Shown here: one piece after another, positions 6,484-61,743 of the stretch
Layout: every line of letters starts with the position of its first letter
Position numbering within the stretch: the stretch's first letter is position 1
Source of the DNA: an uncultured Nitrospiraceae bacterium
Lineage (GTDB): Bacteria; Nitrospirota; Thermodesulfovibrionia; Thermodesulfovibrionales; SM23-35
Length of the DNA: 64,000 bases
Direction of reading: 5' to 3'
NCBI GenBank assembly: GCA_963727775.1
Contig: CAVSHB010000001.1
Coordinates: forward strand, 160,001-224,000
The notes under the pieces: generated by a model
Seen by the model: only the letters and a program-made list of their open reading frames with translations
Database searches by the model: none
Told to the model about the DNA's origin: nothing
Made by a program: the position numbers and the translations under genes

Positions 6484-6558
6484 AGGCGCGTAGCTCAGTG
6501 GGAGAGCGCTTCCTTGACACGGAAGAGGTCAGGGGTTCAATACCCCTCGTGCCTACCA
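6484..6558 (+). tRNA. tRNA-Val(GAC)
   Basis: Cloverleaf: acceptor AGGCGCG/CGTGCCT, anticodon arm CTTCC-TTGACAC-GGAAG, T-loop TTCAATA, 3' CCA. Confidence 0.97.
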
Positions 6559-6619
6559 TAAAAAATCAATAACTTACCGGCCTTTACCATTTGCTCTACC
6601 CGTTAAATTGTGCTAATCG

Positions 6620-6717
6620 AAAGACATTGGTATCGATTACAATCCTATACACGCTTGCGAACTGCTCTTACTGCCGCCTGCACATCTGCCTCGATTTCCT
6701 TTGATGAAGTGCGCTCA
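6620..6717 (-). pseudogene. Remnant of an antitoxin C-terminus and PIN-toxin N-terminus
   Basis: Minus strand reads ERTSSKEIEADVQAAVRAVRKRV* and overlaps a GTG start giving VYRIVIDTNVF (PIN-domain start), which then loses similarity. Confidence 0.55.
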
Positions 6718-6719
6718 AT

Positions 6720-6754
6720 CCCCTCTTAAGCTAAGAGGGGGCAAGGGGGAGTTA
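6720..6754. repeat. Palindromic REP-like element, partial copy (CCCCTCTTAAGCTAAGAGGGG...GAGTTA)
   Basis: Same family as 7251-7300 and 9540-9589, in the opposite orientation; abuts the ATG of the DUF559 remnant. Confidence 0.8.
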
Positions 6755-6870
6755 TGGAGTTTTTAAGAAATGATTCACAATTAAAGCAACGCGCGACGAA
6801 TTAAGATGGAATCAGACTGATAAGGTTTTGGGATAATGAGGTGAGCTTGATATGCAGGGTGTTTTAAGTA
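6754..6870 (+). pseudogene. Internally deleted DUF559 (Vsr-like endonuclease) remnant
   Basis: Across frameshifts it reads MEFLRNDSQLKQR / ELRWNQTD, joined directly to IRFWDNEV / LDMQGVL. These are the N- and C-terminal DUF559 motifs with the middle missing. Confidence 0.6.
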
Positions 6871-6906
6871 ACCCCTCCTATCCTCCCCTTTGCCAAAGGG
6901 GAGGGA
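6869..6906. repeat. Palindromic REP-like element, partial copy (TAACCCCTCC...CTCCCCTTTGCCAAAGGGGAG)
   Basis: Starts TAACCCCTCC like the 7251 copy and has a central GC-rich hairpin. Confidence 0.7.
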
Positions 6907-6990
6907 TAAAAAGATGTAGTCCACATGAAAGCCGGAAGAACTCTTTTTCCGAAAGAATTTAAAACCGCTTAAAATACTATATCTGTCGAT

Positions 6991-9900
6991 TTAATGATCC
7001 AAGTTCATAAAACTTATAATCTCCTTTTCTAAATCGGCATAAATTTCATCAATGGCTTTCTGTATCTCTATGGTCTTCTGAATTGCAGTCACGATCCGGC
7101 AATAGGTTTGTATTTCATCAAGGGACAAAACCCTCTCTTTCCTGTCCTTCAGCCATTTATCACAGACCTGATAACCACCGATTTGATAGCTCCATGCTTC
7201 CCGTGATATGTTTTCAAAGTATTGCTCCTTATTGATATACACACGGCCTGTAACCCCTCCTTCGCCTCCCCTTAAATTAAGGGGAGGGTGGGTGGGGTTA
7301 TATTTCGGCTTATCAACTCTGTTATCTCCCTTTCCCTGAAACCGTGCAACAGGAGAATCAAGCTCCTGTGATTTTAGCAGGTGAAGGTTAACAAGTCTGT
7401 TTCCGTATTCAGACATCTTCTTGAATAGCTTATAGTCCTTAGTAAACGGCACTCTCGGAAAGTCTATCTTCAGGAACTCTGCATATTTTATCCTGTACGT
7501 CTCTGAATATAGAACAGCATATATGTAATAGAAGATTTCTTCAGGGGATATGTCTTTCTTATATGCTCTCGATAAGGATTTAAATATTTCAGACTTTATG
7601 TTCGGCTCTCTTGTCTCTCCATCTGCATGAAATAAGCCCTTCTTTTCTTTTAAGGAATAAAGATACAAAGGGAAAAAATAAGCATTATCCCGTGATGATA
7701 ATATAGTTTTATCTGTTATGAATTGTGATGCATAAATGTGCTTCCATTCAGGGTCTCTTAATCGTCTTGTCAAAGATAATCCTAAATTATTACTAAAGAA
7801 GTTCTGCATGATTTCAATTCTGTCTCTGTCAATAATGAACGGTAAATAGCAGATACTCCTACTATCAAAGGGGCGGTATGCATAGGTACGTATATGCTCT
7901 ATCCAATTGCTGTTCTTAACAGATTCTCTTGCACTCCCTATTTCAAAATCTGTTGTGGCTTTTAATTCAAGAGACTGAGCAACTAAGTCATCAGGTAAAT
8001 CACCTGTAAATATTCTCATCCTTTGTTTGATTCCTTCATCATCAAAACCGATTACAAAATGGTCTCTATGCGTTGTAACTCCAAACGAATCTTTCTCGAA
8101 TATTTCAGATATTGGGACAAATTGCTCGTATTGGGCTTGAAATGAAAAGTCTTTCTCGACAAAAAAGAAATAAGGCTCTATAGGTACCAGGATTTTCCAC
8201 TCTGTTGTATGAAAGTCAGATTTTCCTAAATAGCTGTATTTACTTTCTCTCAAACCGTGAACATCCTGATAGAAAACCCTGCAACCTTTTCCCTTCTTCT
8301 CTTTCTTAACGAATAGGGCAATGGATACACCCTGCTGAATATCAAAAACATTTTCATCCTTACTTCCATCAGGGGCTTTCTCTCCGATACGACTGTTACC
8401 GTGAAGATTCAGAATATAAATTTCATCGAAGCTATCAAGAAGCGTTTTCCTCATACCTCTGTGAATCAGTCCTGATAGATAGGAATTATTAGTTATCATT
8501 CCTATTATCCCTTTCCCGTCACGGTTAATCTTCCAATGTGCAAAACGGATGAATTTTATATAGTCATCAGACAAGGGCTGAATATTCCTTTCCGTTCTGA
8601 CATCCTGTTTGTAGACATTCATTTCATGTTCAATGAAAGCGGATTTATTAACTGAACTTACCGAATAGGGCGGGTTTCCCAATATTACTAATATAGGCTG
8701 TTCTTTCTTAACCTTTCCCGCAAGGTGCGATTCTTCAGACAGTGAAGCCATTCCCGGTAATTCTGTCTGTGCAAGTTCTTCCATCTCAAGGGTATTTGTG
8801 AGATACAGCTTTACCCTGTCATCCTTCTGCAACCTGTATCCTAATTCCTCAAGCAGGAAGGACATTTTCAAATGACCGATAGCATAGGGAGCCATCATTA
8901 ATTCAAAGGCATAGAAGTTTTTCAAGATATGTTCTTTGATGAAATTCTCCTTGGCTCCCTCTCCGTACTTCGAGACAAACTCATCAACTGCCAGTTTAGC
9001 GGTCTCTGCCAAGAAAGTTAACGTACCTGCGGCTGGGTCTAACACTGTCACGGTTTTGTCTGCGAATCCATCAGCTTTCTTAAACTGTTCCTTCAGGATG
9101 CTATGAACTGAACGGACTATGTAAGAAACGACAGGTTCCGGGGTGTAATAAACTCCCCTCATCTCTCTTGCCTTTGGGTCATACTGAGCAAGGAATGTTT
9201 CATAGAAATGCACAATAGGGTCTTTGCCCTTGCCCTCGTGAAAAAATTGATGTAACAGCTTGTGAATGTCCGTTACGGCAAGGATTTCTGATATATCATC
9301 GATAATCCATTCCATCTGCTGCGGTAGGTCTACAGACGATATAAACCTGAATATGTCTCTCAATATCCCTATGGTTTTTGGGATGCTTTCATACGCAAGC
9401 TTTCTGTTAAATCCGCTCTCTGAACGTGTTCGTGCCGCAAATAGTCCATAAGTAACGGTCTGCGCATAAAGGTCTGAAAATTCATCTTCTGTAAGACTGC
9501 TAATAAGATAATCTTTGAATGCCTTGTAGAATCCATGAATAACTCCCCCTTCGCCCCCTCTTAATTTAAGAGGGGGATGGGGGGCGTTATCCCCCGCCAG
9601 TGCCAAAGCGACTGTATCCTTTAGGAACCGTGTCCGTTTTGCAAGCTCTATTGCAAGGGTTTTTGCATCATAGACTTTCGGTATCGAGAAGGAAAAAAAC
9701 TTCTCAAATATCTGCAATAATTCAGCTTCTTTTTCTACAGGGGGCGCGGTCTTGATCTTACTTATCCAATAGGGTCTACCAATAAGGGCTTTATTAATCA
9801 ATACCCCATTACGGTAAAGCCTGAACTCAAGGAAATTGGTCAATATCAGATTAGGGAAAGTATGCAGGTATCTCTTTAGCTGTTCTGTATCCTCTATGCG

Positions 9901-10149
9901 GTCAAGATTCTCAATGGATGGATCTTTAGCCTCTATGTATCCGGTGATATGCTGCTTTCCATCCCACACCCTGAAATCAGGGTTTCCGCCCTCTGTCTTT
10001 TTAGGAAGAATGGTTATATGGATTATTTTCTTTCCGGTAGAAGTGCTGTATTCACTAAGAAGGTCTTTAAGGACGGGATAGTAGCTTTCTTCCCGTGCAT
10101 CTCCGTGAATGCTTACGTCTGCAATCTGCTTCAAATAGGTTTTCAGCAT
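6991..10149 (-). CDS. Single-chain restriction-modification enzyme (Type IIG/ISP-like: nuclease, N6-adenine MTase, specificity domain)
   Basis: N-terminal PDF...YIEAK (PD-(D/E)xK), GVYYTP, motif I LDPAAGT, motif IV GNPPY, and a C-terminal IGGYQV..KWLK typical of the type ISP specificity domain. No helicase motifs seen. Confidence 0.85.
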   Translation of the reverse strand: MLKTYLKQIADVSIHGDAREESYYPVLKDLLSEYSTSTGKKIIHITILPKKTEGGNPDFRVWDGKQHITGYIEAKDPSIENLDRIEDTEQLKRYLHTFPNLILTNFLEFRLYRNGVLINKALIGRPYWISKIKTAPPVEKEAELLQIFEKFFSFSIPKVYDAKTLAIELAKRTRFLKDTVALALAGDNAPHPPLKLRGGEGGVIHGFYKAFKDYLISSLTEDEFSDLYAQTVTYGLFAARTRSESGFNRKLAYESIPKTIGILRDIFRFISSVDLPQQMEWIIDDISEILAVTDIHKLLHQFFHEGKGKDPIVHFYETFLAQYDPKAREMRGVYYTPEPVVSYIVRSVHSILKEQFKKADGFADKTVTVLDPAAGTLTFLAETAKLAVDEFVSKYGEGAKENFIKEHILKNFYAFELMMAPYAIGHLKMSFLLEELGYRLQKDDRVKLYLTNTLEMEELAQTELPGMASLSEESHLAGKVKKEQPILVILGNPPYSVSSVNKSAFIEHEMNVYKQDVRTERNIQPLSDDYIKFIRFAHWKINRDGKGIIGMITNNSYLSGLIHRGMRKTLLDSFDEIYILNLHGNSRIGEKAPDGSKDENVFDIQQGVSIALFVKKEKKGKGCRVFYQDVHGLRESKYSYLGKSDFHTTEWKILVPIEPYFFFVEKDFSFQAQYEQFVPISEIFEKDSFGVTTHRDHFVIGFDDEGIKQRMRIFTGDLPDDLVAQSLELKATTDFEIGSARESVKNSNWIEHIRTYAYRPFDSRSICYLPFIIDRDRIEIMQNFFSNNLGLSLTRRLRDPEWKHIYASQFITDKTILSSRDNAYFFPLYLYSLKEKKGLFHADGETREPNIKSEIFKSLSRAYKKDISPEEIFYYIYAVLYSETYRIKYAEFLKIDFPRVPFTKDYKLFKKMSEYGNRLVNLHLLKSQELDSPVARFQGKGDNRVDKPKYNPTHPPLNLRGGEGGVTGRVYINKEQYFENISREAWSYQIGGYQVCDKWLKDRKERVLSLDEIQTYCRIVTAIQKTIEIQKAIDEIYADLEKEIISFMNLDH
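7251..7300. repeat. 50-bp palindromic element inserted in frame in the RM gene
   Basis: TAACCCC...GGGGTTA termini; central CTCCCCTTAA-A-TTAAGGGGAG; encodes NPTHPPLNLRGGEGGV. Confidence 0.9.
9540..9589. repeat. 50-bp palindromic element inserted in frame in the RM gene (second copy)
   Basis: TAAC...GTTA termini; central CCCCCTCTTA-ATT-TAAGAGGGGG; encodes NAPHPPLKLRGGEGGV. Confidence 0.9.
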
Positions 10150-44997: not shown

Positions 44998-45624
44998 TTA
45001 AATACTGCTAACCATGCTCACTTGCTCCTTTAGTACCTTACCAACAAAACTTTTTGATAGTCTCGTTTTCTTTGCGATACCCCGGATTGATAGTAAAGGG
45101 TCCTGCGTATGTAATTGTATCGCTTTTTCAATATCTATCGTAGCAATAGGCTTTCTGCCGAGCCTTTTACCTTTCCGGCGAGCATTCTCAATGCCAGCCT
45201 TTACCCTTTCCCGGATAAGTTCCCGTTCAAATTCAGCCTTGGACCCGATAATGTGAAACATAAGCCTTCCCTGGGGCGTTGTTAAGTCTAAACTGTCTTG
45301 ATACGATATAAATCCTATCCCAAGGCTCGAAAGCTCCTCAAGGGCCATTACAAGCTGTTTCAGGCTCCTTCCGAATCGGTCCAGCTTCCATACTATTAGA
45401 AGATCAACCTGCCTTTTCCTTGCGGCCTCAAGGAGTCGATCAAGCTGAGGCCTCCGTTCCTTAGTGCCAGAGATACCGTTATCAACGTATTCTCCAGCTA
45501 TGGTGAAACCTCTCCTTTGGCAATACTCCCGAAGAGGAACAACCTGAAGCTCAGGATCTTGACCTTTATCGTGGGTGGAACAACGGGCATATATTGCAGC
45601 TCTGACTTCCTTCTTCATTTTCAT
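44998..45624 (-). CDS. Small serine recombinase (resolvase/invertase family)
   Basis: IYARCST (catalytic Ser), KLDRFGRS, EFERELIRERV and a C-terminal HTH. Confidence 0.93.
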   Translation of the reverse strand: MKMKKEVRAAIYARCSTHDKGQDPELQVVPLREYCQRRGFTIAGEYVDNGISGTKERRPQLDRLLEAARKRQVDLLIVWKLDRFGRSLKQLVMALEELSSLGIGFISYQDSLDLTTPQGRLMFHIIGSKAEFERELIRERVKAGIENARRKGKRLGRKPIATIDIEKAIQLHTQDPLLSIRGIAKKTRLSKSFVGKVLKEQVSMVSSI

Positions 45625-45719: not shown

Positions 45720-45911
45720 ATGAGAACTGTGAAAGCGGATCAGCTTAGAAAACTATTAAAGAAGAAAGAGAAGATGATTACTCTTCGCATGAACCCTGAA
45801 TTGCTCAGACTCCTCGATGAAGCTTTGGAGAAGGATAAAGAGCACGAGAGCCGGAATGAACTGATTGAAACGCTGATCCTTAAATACCTGGAAACGAAGG
45901 GGAAGCTCTGA
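45720..45911 (+). CDS. Ribbon-helix-helix (CopG/Arc-like) protein
   Basis: ITLRMNPELLRLLD...SRNELI; divergent from the recombinase. Confidence 0.7.
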   Translation: MRTVKADQLRKLLKKKEKMITLRMNPELLRLLDEALEKDKEHESRNELIETLILKYLETKGKL

Positions 45912-49617: not shown

Positions 49618-49887
49618 TTATTTTACCGCGTCCTTTAAAGCCTTACCAGCTGTGAATTTAGGCGCCTTCCGGGCAGCAATCTTAATTATTGCTCCTGTTT
49701 GAGGATTACGCCCCTTCCGTGCCTTCCTCTTTGAAATCGAGAAAGTTCCGAAGCCCACAAGAGCTACTTTGTTACCTTTCTTCAGTGTCTTAACTGCATC
49801 AATAAATGATTTAAGAGCCTTTTCTGCTACTGCCTTTGACGCCCCTGAGTCGTTAGCCATCTTTTCTACAAGTTCTACTTTTGTCAT
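49618..49887 (-). CDS. hup: HU-family DNA-binding protein
   Basis: MTKVELV...GFGTF...RKGRNPQTG...[12 protein letters not shown] at 49887 after GGAGGG. Confidence 0.93.
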
Positions 49888-50102
49888 AGAGCCCTCCATT
49901 AATATTGTTGTTAGAAAGTATATCATGCCTCCATCGAAAAATAGCTATCATACCATCTCAAAACTTATAAATTCCCCGTTCACTACTTCATCAAGGCCGC
50001 ACTCTTGGTAGTTTTCATGGGTTTTGGACTGTGCTTACAAACAATAGCGTTGAGGGTTTATAAATATTGCATAGCTACTTAAAGCGGAGAGGTTAAATGA
50101 AC

Positions 50103-50993: not shown

Positions 50994-51358
50994 TTCCGCA
51001 CCATTAAAGACTTTTTACTGCGGATAGATTTACTCAATCATATCAAATCTATTTTTGGGAAGTAAAGATAATATGGTTATAAAAAATTCTTTTTTACAGG
51101 TGAAATGATCGCTTATTTGATATAGCCTTTTTCATATTTGCAGAATTATGGCGAATGTGAGGTGTGCGGAGTTCAGGAAGCTTGCGCATAGGTTCATCTC
51201 TTTTCGTATTGCGTCGTTCGCCCCGCAGTATTCACCGCATTTTCGTTTGGCCCACCTGCTACCAATACACAATATGCTCACCGGCTCGCCTTGTCATGTA
51301 CGGCGGAAAGATTTGTTAGCCGTGTCAAGGCTGACGATGGTCACATCAAATTACAAAG

Positions 51359-54347: not shown

Positions 54348-54779
54348 ATGAAACAGGTACGACGCGAGACGGTAAGAAGAATGCTTCTTGAAAGAAAAAT
54401 GGATGCGCTCAGAATCTTGAAGAGCGGAATGAAACGGCTCCTATCAGGAGAAACAAAGGAGACCTTCGGTGCGGGACTGGAAAAGGGCGACCTTTCGGTA
54501 GCCTGCCAGAACGAGAGCATGCAGAGCACGCGGCTTAAGTCCCAATGGGAGCTAATAAGAAAAATCGACCGTGCACTAAAACACATCGAGGACGGCACCT
54601 ACGGCATTTGCGAAGAGTGAAATGAAGAGATCAGCGAAGACCGTCTGAGCATCGTCCCCTTTGCTCTTTATTGCCGGGATTGCCAGGAAACAATAGAGCT
54701 GGAGAGGAAAAAGATAGAAGTGGGGTCACGTCTTGCCGGGCTGTGGAAAAACTCTCTGAGAGATTACAGGTTAATGTGA
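54348..54779 (+). pseudogene. TraR/DksA C4 zinc-finger protein with in-frame TGA (nonsense or selenocysteine)
   Basis: IDRALKHIEDGTYGICEE-TGA-NEEISEDRLSIVPFALYCRDCQE. The TGA (54618-54620) sits at the second Cys of C-x2-C-x17-C-x2-C. Confidence 0.8.
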
Positions 54780-54873
54780 TGATTTCCATCAACTCCACAT
54801 CATTAGATCATGTCCCGAAGACGTTGAAAAGGAAAACTCTCGTAGGTTATGTTAGAAGGTAACAAAGGGAGCC

Positions 54874-55473
54874 ATGCCAGAATTTAAAAACAGAGAAGAA
54901 TATGAGAAATGGAAGGCGCAGAAAATTAAGGACAATGAAAAAAGAACTGACTCTGTGTCAATACACTCTCAACAAGAAGAACAAAACACAAAGGAAACTT
55001 CAGGATACAGACACCAATATTTCTCAGGACCAGCAGAGAATGTAGTGTATGCGGGATTCTGGCGAAGGGTAATGGCTTCTTTGGTAGATTTCATTGTGTG
55101 GCTCTTTATATCGGTGATATTTGTTGTTGCCTTATATGCCTTAACAGGAAGCGGTCTTCGGGCAGCAAACTCACTTCCTGCAAACTTATTCACTTTTATC
55201 GCATCTTGGCTATACTCTGCAATTATGGAAAGTTCAGATAAACAAGCAACGCTGGGGAAGATGGCGATAGGCATTGTTGTTACCGACCTTGAAGGCAATA
55301 AAATCTCATTCGGTAAGGCAACTGGGCGATATTTTGCAAAAATATTATCCACATTAATATTGCTTATCGGTTACATGATGGCTGGGTTTACACAGAAGAA
55401 ACAAGCTCTTCACGACATGATGGCTGGCACTTTGGTAGTAGTTAACCCAAAAAGTGCAGTTGACCTAAAATAA
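54874..55473 (+). CDS. RDD family membrane protein (last codons replaced by IS1380 end)
   Basis: YAGFWRR..A..VD, QATLGK and QALHD..AGT motifs. Before the insertion the end would read VVVKQ*. Confidence 0.9.
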   Translation: MPEFKNREEYEKWKAQKIKDNEKRTDSVSIHSQQEEQNTKETSGYRHQYFSGPAENVVYAGFWRRVMASLVDFIVWLFISVIFVVALYALTGSGLRAANSLPANLFTFIASWLYSAIMESSDKQATLGKMAIGIVVTDLEGNKISFGKATGRYFAKILSTLILLIGYMMAGFTQKKQALHDMMAGTLVVVNPKSAVDLK

Positions 55474-58446: not shown

Positions 58447-58685
58447 AAGGTTTGGTGTCCACTATTGACATCCGAGGTCAGCATTTTTGAAGAGTATACC
58501 ACAGACGCGGATTTCAGGAAGGACATAACTCTCCGTATTTCTATTAGAAGGTCTCACACTGCAGCCTGGAAGGTAGGATTAGAACACCGTAAACTTTACA
58601 TGCACAGCCTTTACAATCCCAGATCTATGTTCCACATCTATCCCCATCTGCCGGTCCGCCGATTAAAAGGATTCAATCTCCTTGA

Positions 58686-59288
58686 TCATTTCAACTCCCC
58701 TAACTCCGGGTGTTCTCTTCGAAACTTTGCATGTGCTTCCCGAGGGCTCATATCATCCAAGCCCAATCTTTTTCTACGCATCTCATAAGTCTCCACAAGA
58801 AGATTTCCATCGATCTTAACATTGGTTTGCAAATGTCCCCTCAGCTTAAGGCCAGTCTCGACATATTTATGCCGAGCCATGAAATCAGGCACATCGATGA
58901 AATCTTTTGTCATGCCGCTCGCATCTTTCATCTCTTCGCCGCTCGGAGCAATGACCATAGCGGAAATCACCTTTGTTGATTCAAGACCTTGGCTGAGAAC
59001 CTCCACTAAACGAGCGTCCGTAATGCCTTGACGATCCATGATCTCGGTAATTGCTTCCTTACCCCTACTTTTCCCTATAACAAGCCCAGGGTTCTTATCG
59101 GCGGTAGAGGCCGCATATCCAGCAGCGATCATAGCGTCTTTCATCGTCTTATAGCCGGGATCCTGAAGGTTCTTTATAAGGCGGCGTTCGCGAAGGGAAA
59201 GCTTGCGTTCTTTTTTCTTTTTGGTAGGGGCAGGGACAGGTATTTCAGTGACCGGATTTGCAGGCTCGTTTTTCGCACCTATGCTCAC
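58686..59288 (-). CDS. Terminase-small-subunit-like protein
   Basis: HTH with AMIAAGYA (TerS-like AGY); VPDFMARHKYVETGLKLRG; C-terminal tail shared with the neighbouring terS; AGGAG RBS. Confidence 0.55.
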   Translation of the reverse strand: MSIGAKNEPANPVTEIPVPAPTKKKKERKLSLRERRLIKNLQDPGYKTMKDAMIAAGYAASTADKNPGLVIGKSRGKEAITEIMDRQGITDARLVEVLSQGLESTKVISAMVIAPSGEEMKDASGMTKDFIDVPDFMARHKYVETGLKLRGHLQTNVKIDGNLLVETYEMRRKRLGLDDMSPREAHAKFRREHPELGELK

Positions 59289-59498
59289 TGTTGAAGTCTC
59301 CTTTTGTCCTCAGATTTAAAGCAATTTAGGTGCACAGCTCTGTACCTTTTGTAAATATATCAGATTTTATTAGATTTTGGCGGAATTCACTCGATATTGG
59401 CAGTAATCCTAAAATGCAATTCGCAGTTATTTGACAAAGTGGTAACCTTTGTGCGAATCGCTGCCTGCGTAGCATTAAGAGGACTCCAATTTCCTTGC

Positions 59499-59716
59499 TC
59501 ATACTGGATCGCCTTCCCTCCCAAACTCCGGATGTTCTCTTATAAACTTTGCATGCGCTTCTTTGGGTGGCATATCATCAAGGCCAAGCCTTTTACGCCT
59601 CGCCTCATACGTTTCGGCGGGTACATTTACCGTTACTTGCCCCTTGAGCATGCCGAGGCGTTGCATTTTTATTCCAATGGCTTGCAGTTTATCAAAGAAC
59701 TTCAGCGTCCTGTGGG
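59499..59716 (-). pseudogene. terS: Terminase small subunit, 3' part (downstream of IS256)
   Basis: HRTLKFFDKLQAI...; in frame with the 5' part once the IS and one TSD copy are removed. Confidence 0.82.
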
Positions 59717-61099
59717 GATAGCGTAAGATCAATTCTGCAAATATGAATCAGGGTATAATTCTCAATGGAAAAAGCAATCTCTCAAAGAGAGAAAGGAGAA
59801 TTATACCCATGAGAAGAATTTTATCAAAGAAGGCGAAAAAAGTCATTGAGGATGGAGTGCAGGAGTTTATGGCGATGCCCCCGTTAGCGGAGTTGACGAG
59901 GATCGGAGCGAGGATGATGTTAGAGTCGGCGATGGAAGAAGAAGTGACGGCATATCTTCAGAGAGACTATTATGAGAGGAATGCCTGCGCTAAAGGAAGC
60001 CGGAGTGGATCGAAGCCCAGAACCGTGAAGATCGGTAGCGGTGATATAGGGCTAAAGATGCCGCAGGTAAGGAATGCCGGTGGCCCATTTCATTCCCGGA
60101 TATTGCCGCCACGGATGACCCAGATGGATGAAATACAGGAAATCATCCCTCTTTTGTATATGAACGGCCTGTCCAGCAGGAAGGTAAAGAAAGCTGTGGG
60201 TAAACTCATAGGCAAGAAAGGCCTGAGCCATCAGAATGTCATAAGGATCAGCGGCAGGATCGTCGATGAGTTCAATGCATGGAAGAAGCGGGACTTATCG
60301 ATGCTGCAGGTGGTGTATCTTGTTCTGGACGGCGTACGGATGGGAGTAAGGGCCGGGACCAAGGAGAAAGAGGCGGTGCTGGTGGCCTGGGCGTTTCTGG
60401 AGGACGGCAGCCGGGAGCTCGTGGGCGTGTCCCTTGGCAACAGTGAATCGTACAATGCGTGGAAAGGTTTTCTGGAGGATCTCACGAAACGGGGCATAAG
60501 TGAACCAATGCTCACGGTTATCGATGGCTGTCCCGGCCTTATCAAGGCGGTGGATGAAGTCTTCCCTGAATCAGACAAACAGCGCTGCACGAAGCACAGG
60601 ACTGAAAACGTGCTGGATAAAGTACTGGAACAGGACAAGGCATCAGTAAAAGAGTCAGTAAGGAAGGTGTTTTACGCCTCGACCTATGAGCACGCAAAGG
60701 AGGCCGTGGAAATGTTCAAGAAGAAGTGGCGCATGAAATATCCTTCGGCAGTGGAATGCCTGACTGAAAATATAGAAGACTGTCTGACCTATTACAAATA
60801 TCCTTACCAGCACTGGCTTAGAATTCGGACGACCAATATAGTGGAGAGGAGCTTCAAGGAGGTGAAGCGAAGGGTAAAGGTAGCAGGCCGGTTTCAGAAG
60901 GAGGAGCGTGCGCTCACCATGGTTTACTGGCAGCTCCACGAACTTAGATGGAACGGTGTAAGCATGACCAAGGAGGCAAAGGCAATCCTTACGAGGATCC
61001 GGGCATCAAGGATGCAAAGGGTTGCGGCATAATCGTATCAATGAAAACCCTTGAGAATAAAGCCCTGAAGAGAATTTACAGAAAAGACTTGACACTGTC
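59717..61099 (+). mobile_element. IS256-family element
   Basis: Imperfect ~26-bp IRs (GATAGCGTAAGATCAATTCTGCAAAT / ATTTACAGAAAAGACTTGACACTGTC); 8-bp TSD CCTGTGGG (59709-59716 and 61100-61107). Confidence 0.92.
59809..61032 (+). CDS. IS256 (Mutator-like) transposase
   Basis: LYMNGLS.R, LDG, IDGCPGL, QRC..H and RTTNIVER motifs. ATG at 59809 after AAGGAG; the ORF track starts at 59743. Confidence 0.93.
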   Translation: MRRILSKKAKKVIEDGVQEFMAMPPLAELTRIGARMMLESAMEEEVTAYLQRDYYERNACAKGSRSGSKPRTVKIGSGDIGLKMPQVRNAGGPFHSRILPPRMTQMDEIQEIIPLLYMNGLSSRKVKKAVGKLIGKKGLSHQNVIRISGRIVDEFNAWKKRDLSMLQVVYLVLDGVRMGVRAGTKEKEAVLVAWAFLEDGSRELVGVSLGNSESYNAWKGFLEDLTKRGISEPMLTVIDGCPGLIKAVDEVFPESDKQRCTKHRTENVLDKVLEQDKASVKESVRKVFYASTYEHAKEAVEMFKKKWRMKYPSAVECLTENIEDCLTYYKYPYQHWLRIRTTNIVERSFKEVKRRVKVAGRFQKEERALTMVYWQLHELRWNGVSMTKEAKAILTRIRASRMQRVAA

Positions 61100-61480
61100 C
61101 CTGTGGGTCCCGATCTGGGTTTTGAGGATTCCCAGCTCCTTCACACAGGCGACCTGCTCGACTGTAAGCTCGTGGATATTCTTCAATTCCCCATTATCAT
61201 GCACGAAATCCTTGAGATTAAACCGTATTATCGTGTCAAGGTGAGCCTCCACTTCATGAGCCTCCATAAGTGCTTTATGAGTCAAATTGTTGAGGGAATT
61301 ACGAGAATTAGTAATTGCAGTTTGAATCTGAGGTCTTAGGTTTTCTGCGCCAATAGCACAAGCAGTCTTTTTTGAATAACCCGCGCGAATTGCTGCTTGG
61401 GTAGCATTGAAATCTTTCAGATACTCAACGACAAAGAGCTGTTCTTTCGGTGTAAGTTGCCCGTTCTTTCTTATTGGCAT
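61100..61480 (-). pseudogene. terS: Terminase small subunit, 5' part (interrupted by IS256)
   Basis: LTPKEQLFVVEYLKDFNATQAAIRAGYSKKTA (Terminase_2 signature); AGGAGG RBS; reconstructed length 196 aa. Confidence 0.88.
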
Positions 61481-61665
61481 AATTCCTCCTGACGATCATC
61501 CAGATGATGCGACGTTTACTGTCGGCATTCCATTCAGGAAGTTCTTGAGAGTGTAATTACTCAGGAAGTTATCTTTGCTGGACTCAGGGATTATTTTGTG
61601 TAGCTCTTGTGTAGCTTTTTTAGGTATGACGGGGTGGTTAACTGTTGAATTTAAATGGTTTTTAC

Positions 61666-61743
<78 letters not shown>

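Follow-up and report, generated by a model that had tools for sequence, protein, structure and literature searches.

In a 64,000-nucleotide stretch of DNA from an uncultured Nitrospiraceae bacterium (hereafter the window), two tandem genes downstream of tRNA-Pro, gene A (terS-A) and gene B (terS-B), encode small terminase subunits (TerS) with different N-terminal heads and a common C-terminal tail. We conclude that these genes are probably the packaging-hijack module of a Nitrospirota satellite family resembling the phage-inducible chromosomal islands (PICIs), present here in a reduced and non-autonomous form with one of the two genes broken. Both genes are TerS genes, and the cassette that contains them occurs five times in this genome, each time at an end resembling an attachment site (att) and without a gene for the large terminase subunit (TerL; terL). 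The copies have been kept under purifying selection, related genes lie in satellite-like elements, and head types have been exchanged on the shared tail.

Gene A is encoded on the minus strand, starting 186 nt downstream of the insertion-site tRNA-Pro(TGG) (61666..61743, minus strand). It is interrupted by an insertion sequence (IS) of the IS256 family (59717..61099, plus strand; Transposase_mut E 1e-79), which is flanked by an 8-bp target duplication, CCTGTGGG, at 59709-59716 and 61100-61107. The gene A flanks of 381 nt and 210 nt share one frame of 196 codons plus stop, divided into a 5′ part of 127 codons (61100..61480, minus strand) and a 3′ part of 69 codons that includes the tail (59499..59708, minus strand; tail 59520-59615). 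The 5′ part matches Terminase_2 (PF03592; E 6e-25, 89 bits against a cut-off of 26.1) and also phrog_51, and intact paralogs of gene A score 111-114 bits against Terminase_2. Since the IS256 element is 100% identical to other copies in the genome, the break in gene A is recent.

Gene B (58686..59288, minus strand) is intact, with 200 codons, a strong ribosome site, and a tail at 58698-58793. Taken singly, it shows no Pfam match at E 0.1 and no match in 50,697 GenBank phage records. Within its family, 21 of 49 aligned members match Terminase_2, and in IMG/VR a B-type TerS frame is present at 79 of 80 loci, many of them near-copies of one another (L102 and L033, which have no TerS frame, were left out of the counts). 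The next large gene after these viral homologs is a named TerL in 64 of 79 cases; in 14 it belongs to an unnamed family seen together with TerL matches, and in one it has no assignment. An AlphaFold model of gene B (pLDDT 78) has as its best match among 48,161 solved chains the DNA-binding domain of SF6 G1P (2cmp; Z 6.6, r.m.s.d. 2.3, 56 residues), with TerS chains at ranks 1, 2, and 4. Judged from its homologs and predicted fold, gene B is a real TerS. A profile comparison of A with B was set aside, as the A alignment contains one B-family row (P0065).

We also made a quick tree of B heads, with tails cut off, near-duplicate viral rows removed, and 1 of 76 rows dropped as too short. Sixteen rows from islands or with the long tail form one branch (Shimodaira-Hasegawa approximate likelihood-ratio support 95) that contains none of the 58 viral rows. 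The B gene of a satellite-like element described below, L032, groups with a virus.

The tails of A and B are identical at 27 of 32 residues, with 10 of these 27 encoded by different codons and 71 of 96 nucleotides identical. The proportion of synonymous differences in this pair (pS) is 0.66 against a nonsynonymous proportion (pN) of 0.16, which argues that the tail peptide is conserved beyond what its DNA accounts for. No other two-copy direct repeat in 41500-62000 is as large as this duplication (109 nt, 72%), which extends beyond the stop codons. These results bear out all the sequence observations of the first-pass annotation, which was made from the DNA letters alone: a TerS of 196 amino acids split by IS256 beside tRNA-Pro, a second TerS-like open reading frame with a dissimilar head, the tail positions with their residue and codon counts, and the suggested selection on the tail peptide.

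The sharing of one tail by different heads is broader than that annotation had claimed. The genome holds two tail variants, each found on A as well as B heads, and a third head family (phrog_2538) carries the full tail in the protein P0077; by these alignments, one tail occurs on three different TerS head families. A tail profile matches seven of the order's 317 genomes, four of them strongly (this one included), and 3 of 401 genomes sampled phylum-wide. A profile search of 1.84 billion representatives yields 14 matches, among them the third head family, and a tail DNA pattern recovers six metagenome loci and no viral ones. The tail is likely a TerL dock: the C-terminus of the lambda and P22 TerS proteins is described as binding TerL (PMC9611059). 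A predicted complex of tail A with TerL residues 1-345 scored 0.13, 0.54, and 0.27, with a median below the 0.32 mark and without folded controls, and counts neither way.

The genome (3.43 Mb in 4 contigs, 96.8% complete) contains the cassette five times in the order att arm, terS, conserved spacer, terS, conserved 3′ element. All five are linked to tRNA or transfer-messenger RNA (tmRNA) genes: at tRNA-Pro, at tRNA-Asp, on the 5′ side of tRNA-Leu, at tmRNA, and at a tmRNA 3′ fragment at 103 kb of contig C3 (C3:103 kb). In the window's tRNA-Pro copy A is broken, B is intact, and both carry tails. The tRNA-Asp and tRNA-Leu copies have an intact, tailed A and a B that has lost its tail, and in the C3:103 kb copy A is reduced to 33 codons and B is intact and tailed. 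All cassettes face away from the att end and into cargo.

Between the two genes lies a non-coding spacer of about 200 bp (59289..59498 in the window, minus strand), which ends in the terS-B ribosome site, is 83-94% identical across the five copies, and is a candidate packaging (pac) site or regulatory region. The 3′ element of about 170 bp (58510..58685, minus strand), without a common open frame, is 75-88% identical across the five. Between the window's gene B and the other B genes, pS is 0.62-0.83, which is close to saturation of the synonymous sites. Close to the start of the spacer, an out-of-gene copy of the NATQAAIR-coding DNA of terS-A (59453..59476, minus strand) is identical to 61385-61408 at 21 of 24 positions, with all three differences at third codon positions. 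We read this copy as the stub of an older terS-A, and its position would explain the deletions of A. For A copies, the ratio of nonsynonymous to synonymous substitution rates (dN/dS) ranges from 0.10 to 0.24 at dS 0.17-0.55; B pairs whose dS is finite give 0.09-0.45. These values show purifying selection on the cassette TerS copies. A search for RNA structure in the spacer and 3′ element gave compensatory changes in 0 of 6 and 1 of 44 pairs, with Rfam matching only tRNA and tmRNA, and we rejected this candidate.

No terL was found in the whole genome by PF04466, by PF03237, or by a TerL profile built here, which extends to the genome the first-pass observation that the window has no terL, portal, or capsid gene. 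Two weak matches to phrog_2 were found, which we take to be a RecD-type helicase and a PhoH-type ATPase from their motifs. Portal and capsid genes likewise have no match in the genome, and the terL, portal, and capsid genes that would adjoin terS in a prophage are missing here. PICIs are described as defined by an integrase, a regulator, a primase-replicase, and terS (PMC10085698). The window's island shares with them a terS without terL or virion genes; as to an AlpA, Stl, or MerR regulator, only a small phrog_4738 repressor beside a resolvase was found. Without an integrase or replicase it falls outside the PICIs as defined, but we infer that it works like one. None of the 20 sequencing runs considered contained half of the sequence words, and none was a virome or induced-particle run; in the four that were mapped, coverage fell mostly on IS elements and the tRNA.

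The closest named homologs come from Nitrospirota, in line with a host of that phylum. Outside this genome, long-tail TerS genes are found in elements with the appearance of satellites. Counting once those loci that were reached by several routes, six are readable (L030, L031, L122, L126, L145, and L148), and in none is terL the next gene; the first-pass annotation had named two observations that would overturn its reading, a second open reading frame lacking a TerS fold and pairs confined to complete prophages beside terL, and neither was made here. L031 carries in order a repressor/resolvase pair, cargo, a primase, a long-tail TerS-B, an integrase, and a tRNA 3′ fragment, without terL. L148, likewise without terL, has tRNAs, the same resolvase pair, an initiator, a DnaB helicase, a primase finger, and a long-tail TerS-A, with the contig ending 3.7 kb later. 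L030 is a bare cassette at tRNA-Val, comprising an A stub, spacer, B, and 3′ element. The window's own serine resolvase (44998..45624, minus strand) and the small phrog_4738 repressor gene divergent from it (45720..45911, plus strand) share 72-81% DNA identity with the corresponding pair in relatives' TerS-bearing elements. This pair lies 16 kb past the cassette, and in the tRNA-Leu island a resolvase lies 19 kb past it. The other end of the tRNA-Leu island survives on contig C4, where an att copy of 40 bp and a matching arm accompany an integrase and a 73% homolog of a satellite gene; this is the only recognizable integrase end among the five islands, now on another contig.

Three further elements carry a short form of the tail, all without terL. 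L032 spans 9 kb with att on both sides and encodes an integrase, a helix-turn-helix (HTH) protein, a rep O protein, a TerS-like protein, a short-tail TerS-B, and RusA. L208 encodes rep O, a primase-helicase, a TerS-like protein, a short-tail TerS-A, and an integrase, and L209 has a short-tail form with an integrase and an unassigned replication-type gene. The HTH gene and a TerS-like gene without a tail are common to L032 and L208. The tailed TerS that comes next has a B-type head in L032 and an A-type head in L208; these differing heads at the same position are direct evidence of head exchange. L031, L032, and L208 have the gene content of PICIs, with an integrase, a replication gene, and terS and without terL; both att copies are seen for L032 and one end only for L031 and L208. 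No capsid-morphogenesis gene was recognized among the scanned proteins of intact relatives, and the pathogenicity islands of Staphylococcus aureus (SaPIs) are likewise described as having none (PMC10085698).

The same cargo, encoding an S24 peptidase, a DinB-type polymerase, and UvrD, lies behind TerS cassettes in two genomes (L007:2307-7086 and L149:3595-8605), with an additional SRAP gene in L007. L208 (2795-8973) and L148 (15844-19410) encode large proteins resembling virion-borne or ejection proteins, including one of 1703 residues with DarB-like and minor head matches, and phrog_10969.

A candidate helper TerL family is found within the same order. The terS-B end of L034 carries the short tail beside a TerL fragment, and 17 of the order's 317 genomes contain the TerL family of this fragment; used as a single query, the fragment found no viral locus. 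Of 20 loci examined in the order, six have an intact terL whose preceding gene terminates in E[TS]YE[EQ]RL or TTYEERL (the short ETYE-x-R tail). In one such cluster, L204, terS-terL is followed by podovirus-type genes for a portal-like protein, the major capsid protein, and head closure. With a profile derived from island tails only, two cognate short-tail ends reach 10.1 bits, and none of 79 viral TerS-B ends exceeds 6.2. Together with the lambda and P22 precedent, the short-tail motif makes the link from tail to TerL suggestive. In one family of the order, f4, 13 of 22 genomes (L158-L170 and L173-L175) carry a conserved terL, mostly with portal-like genes behind it and with the full head cluster in L204; these clusters are possibly a domesticated prophage or gene transfer agent. 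L202 has terS-terL without a portal gene.

From these data we propose a mechanism in which the N-terminal HTH head of an expressed TerS would bind a pac site in the island, with the conserved spacer and the NATQAAIR-coding DNA as candidates, and its C-terminal tail would dock on the TerL of an infecting podovirus-like helper. Headful packaging would then proceed away from the tRNA and through the cargo, leading to transfer. By swapping heads, elements could change their DNA specificity with the tail remaining fitted to the helper's motor. One tail-bearing TerS per island is apparently sufficient, leaving the second copy free to decay as A has done here. PICIs are reported to package downstream DNA in situ (PMC12829572), and a P22 pac site in the chromosome is reported to suffice for raised downstream transfer (PMC11260489).

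A bolder extension would make the cassette of about 1.9 kb (att arm, promoter, TerS, spacer, TerS, and 3′ element) a self-standing transduction plug-in. It would move among unrelated islands, need no integrase or replicase of its own, and let any infecting phage of one TerL family package tens of kb of cargo directly out of the chromosome, with three interchangeable heads on one docking tail, possibly in mixed rings of tailed and tail-less subunits, choosing which island is packaged. We regard this extension as doubtful.

Several observations weigh against a packaging-hijack module. In the window A is broken, and in the tmRNA copy A is deleted (almost gone) and an IS200-type element interrupts B; both tails occur together in only one of the five copies. 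The states of the five copies imply that each keeps at most one intact tail-bearing TerS. Because gene A is interrupted, the window holds one intact TerS and not the working pair of DNA-specificity adaptors that the first-pass annotation had envisaged, and the other four copies offer no such pair either. No integrase was found in the window (PF00589 or PF07508), tblastn with satellite primases and initiators found no primase-replicase in its island, and the tRNA-Asp island, too, yielded neither an integrase nor a replication gene nor a partner att. For the identity of gene B, the fold match (Z 6.6) is under the tool's safe level, and BFVD matches are weak and mostly TerS, with one at E<0.001 that is unnamed. 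Nine of the 16 rows in the B-head clade are labeled by the tail alone and not by their surroundings.

The link from tail to TerL meets similar objections. No terL was seen with the full 32-residue tail next to it, and this tail was found in no viral contig of IMG/VR; the short tail was not seen at 14 of the 20 TerL loci. The island-tail profile gives two other cognate ends 5.4 and 0.8 bits, and among 56 genes that lie upstream of this family's TerLs in IMG/VR the best score is 1.9 bits, so the tail motif is not general to the TerL family. TerS C-termini are also described as able to bind DNA in HK97 and P22 (PMC11331095, PMC9611059), and conservation of the tail therefore need not mean TerL docking. 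Finally, two loci show that prophage decay does produce att ends of this kind: the tmRNA-fragment att arm of the C3:103 kb copy is also present at L034, there followed by fragments of terS-B and TerL, and L157 combines an att end and a similar promoter with a terS-B that is broken and a terL that is cut.

These two stumps, and the damage seen in many cassette copies, speak for an explanation by prophage decay alone. Under such decay, the cassettes would be remnants of phages with terS near an att end, from which terL and other genes were deleted, and the tail would reflect ancestry in the helper family. It would leave unexplained why the spacer and 3′ element are the same in all five copies, with a terL remnant in none, and why the copies have diverged under purifying selection. 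Moreover, long-tail TerS genes precede an integrase or cargo in intact-looking elements, and long-tail B heads branch away from viral ones. We consider prophage decay unlikely: decayed terS-terL stumps do exist at equivalent att ends, as the first-pass annotation had allowed, but selection and the common architecture are not accounted for.

Alternatively, the TerS proteins could be domesticated anti-phage decoys, kept to poison phage terminase through mixed rings or by occupying TerL and themselves unpackaged. Such a role would suit the four of five copies that lack integrase and replication genes, yet remain under continuing selection, and the two copies in which a tail-less B adjoins a tailed A. 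Excess TerS is reported to inhibit packaging in T4, SPP1, and E217 (PMC9611059), and the satellite terminase inhibitors Gpi (10.1101/2024.04.22.590561) and Rpp (PMC6739421) are described. A decoy would have no need, however, for a conserved 200-bp spacer and 3′ element, a fixed cargo-facing position at the att end, or exchangeable DNA-binding heads, and intact family members resemble mobile satellites; overall, a decoy role seems quite improbable.

Least probable of the alternatives is a device acting only in cis, in which selection now acts on the DNA, as a pac mimic recognized by the TerS of the helper, with the TerS genes as passengers being lost: although the spacer is highly conserved next to nearly saturated synonymous sites in B and persists where A is deleted or B broken, and although PICI-like elements (PLEs) are described as having pac mimicry as a backup (10.1101/2024.04.22.590561) and the chromosomal P22 pac site offers a parallel, the protein frames, tail included, have dN/dS well below 1, and the spacer's identity could stem from recent exchange between islands or from promoter function.

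Thus, a packaging module of a satellite family is the reading that we prefer. The first-pass annotation had suggested a minimal satellite; that suggestion is partly supported, but the cassette looks like what is left of the packaging module of a larger satellite family and not like a self-standing invention.

Between tRNA-Pro and gene A, the window contains att-arm-like DNA read from the sequence (61596..61665, minus strand), with tandem AGCTACACAA repeats and what we take to be an IHF-like site; no partner att copy or matching arm was found elsewhere in the genome. A promoter follows at 61490..61525 (minus strand), which by eye is a degenerate copy of the version at the tmRNA copy. There, upstream of the cassette (G000:C3:199070-199100, L012), a perfect TTGACA-17-TATAAT promoter has a GTGAAC/GTTCAC palindrome between its boxes; the same perfect promoter and palindrome occur in L030, and a degenerate form in L157. 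The palindrome resembles what we assume to be the LexA box, GAAC-N4-GTTC. We dropped this reading and rejected SOS-response control of the cassette: of 44 genomic box matches, none of the 12 listed precedes recA, and no LexA scored above the cut-off.

The IS256 element holds an outward 11/12 sigma-70 match (59827-59800, minus strand) facing the remainder of terS-A and terS-B. The region 59499-59666 (minus strand) is readable from an internal ATG as an almost tail-only peptide of 55 residues (P0074), a possible accidental decoy. At 51121-51147, a solitary 27-nt inverted match to the left end of IS256 is perhaps the remnant of a second copy. An HU-family gene (49618..49926, minus strand) has related DNA in the tRNA-Asp and tRNA-Leu islands. 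An RDD gene with flanking DNA (54348-55473; L008:8601-9179) is 99% identical between the tRNA-Pro and tRNA-Leu islands, which suggests recent cargo exchange between them. At 6484-10149, a tRNA-Val followed by a type ISP-like restriction-modification gene forms a second island end that faces the TerS island.

Genome-wide, att copies of tRNA-Leu, tRNA-Glu, tmRNA, tRNA-Sec, and tRNA-Arg lie on other contigs or inverted relative to the tRNA; from their arrangement, these displaced copies are the product of heavy IS-driven rearrangement or of assembly joins. Several elements in the genome duplicate tRNA 5′ halves. Two more tRNA islands (L014-L017; C3:427-468 kb and C2:222-290 kb) have an integrase and a related resolvase without terS, along with what are, presumably from their motifs, an HD/OB-type gene and a toxin-antitoxin-like pair.

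Among known systems, the family is like PICIs and SaPIs in its tRNA-type att integration, its own terS, and its lack of terL and structural genes; its intact relatives further share the integrase, HTH regulators, primase or replicase, and terS described for PICIs (PMC10085698). It differs in that the window's island has no integrase or replication genes, in that terS lies at the att end facing inwards or directly upstream of the integrase, and in its tandem TerS-like genes, resolvase/repressor pair, exchange of head families on one tail, and large cargo. Prochlorococcus tycheposons, which are PICI-like, are similarly described as tRNA-integrated and terS-bearing, with small serine recombinases counted as hallmark genes, and as inserting in tandem and leaving decayed remnants in islands (10.1101/2020.12.28.424599). 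Compared by description only, tycheposons belong to another phylum and have one terS per element, and among them no terS-bearing element with cargo was reported (10.1101/2020.12.28.424599), whereas here cargo follows the cassette. In Escherichia coli PICIs with Rpp and the Vibrio cholerae PLE with Gpi, GpsA, and GpsB, more than one protein is likewise described as redirecting or blocking the helper terminase (PMC6739421, 10.1101/2024.04.22.590561); again compared by description only, the proteins here are full TerS, with head, oligomer core, and tail. With phage Terminase_2 and SF6 G1P TerS proteins the family shares the PF03592 match of A, the alignment of the B head with SF6 G1P, and viral relatives that precede terL, but no terL comes next here and the long tail is not found in IMG/VR.

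We found no paper on phage satellites in Nitrospirota in the open-access literature, and no description of this TerS family or of one tail on several heads, although the satellite catalogs of PMC10085698 may list such elements. Our best reading is that the family represents TerS-carrying satellites in a previously undescribed variant, present in reduced form in this genome. It provides a natural swap experiment for the open question of which part of TerS selects DNA and which engages TerL: its tail is borne by three head families, and the candidate TerL family of the helper occurs in the same order. Should cassettes lacking an integrase still promote packaging, a module of 2 kb would suffice to render chromosomal cargo transducible; should they not, they would be a well-preserved remnant of a new satellite lineage.

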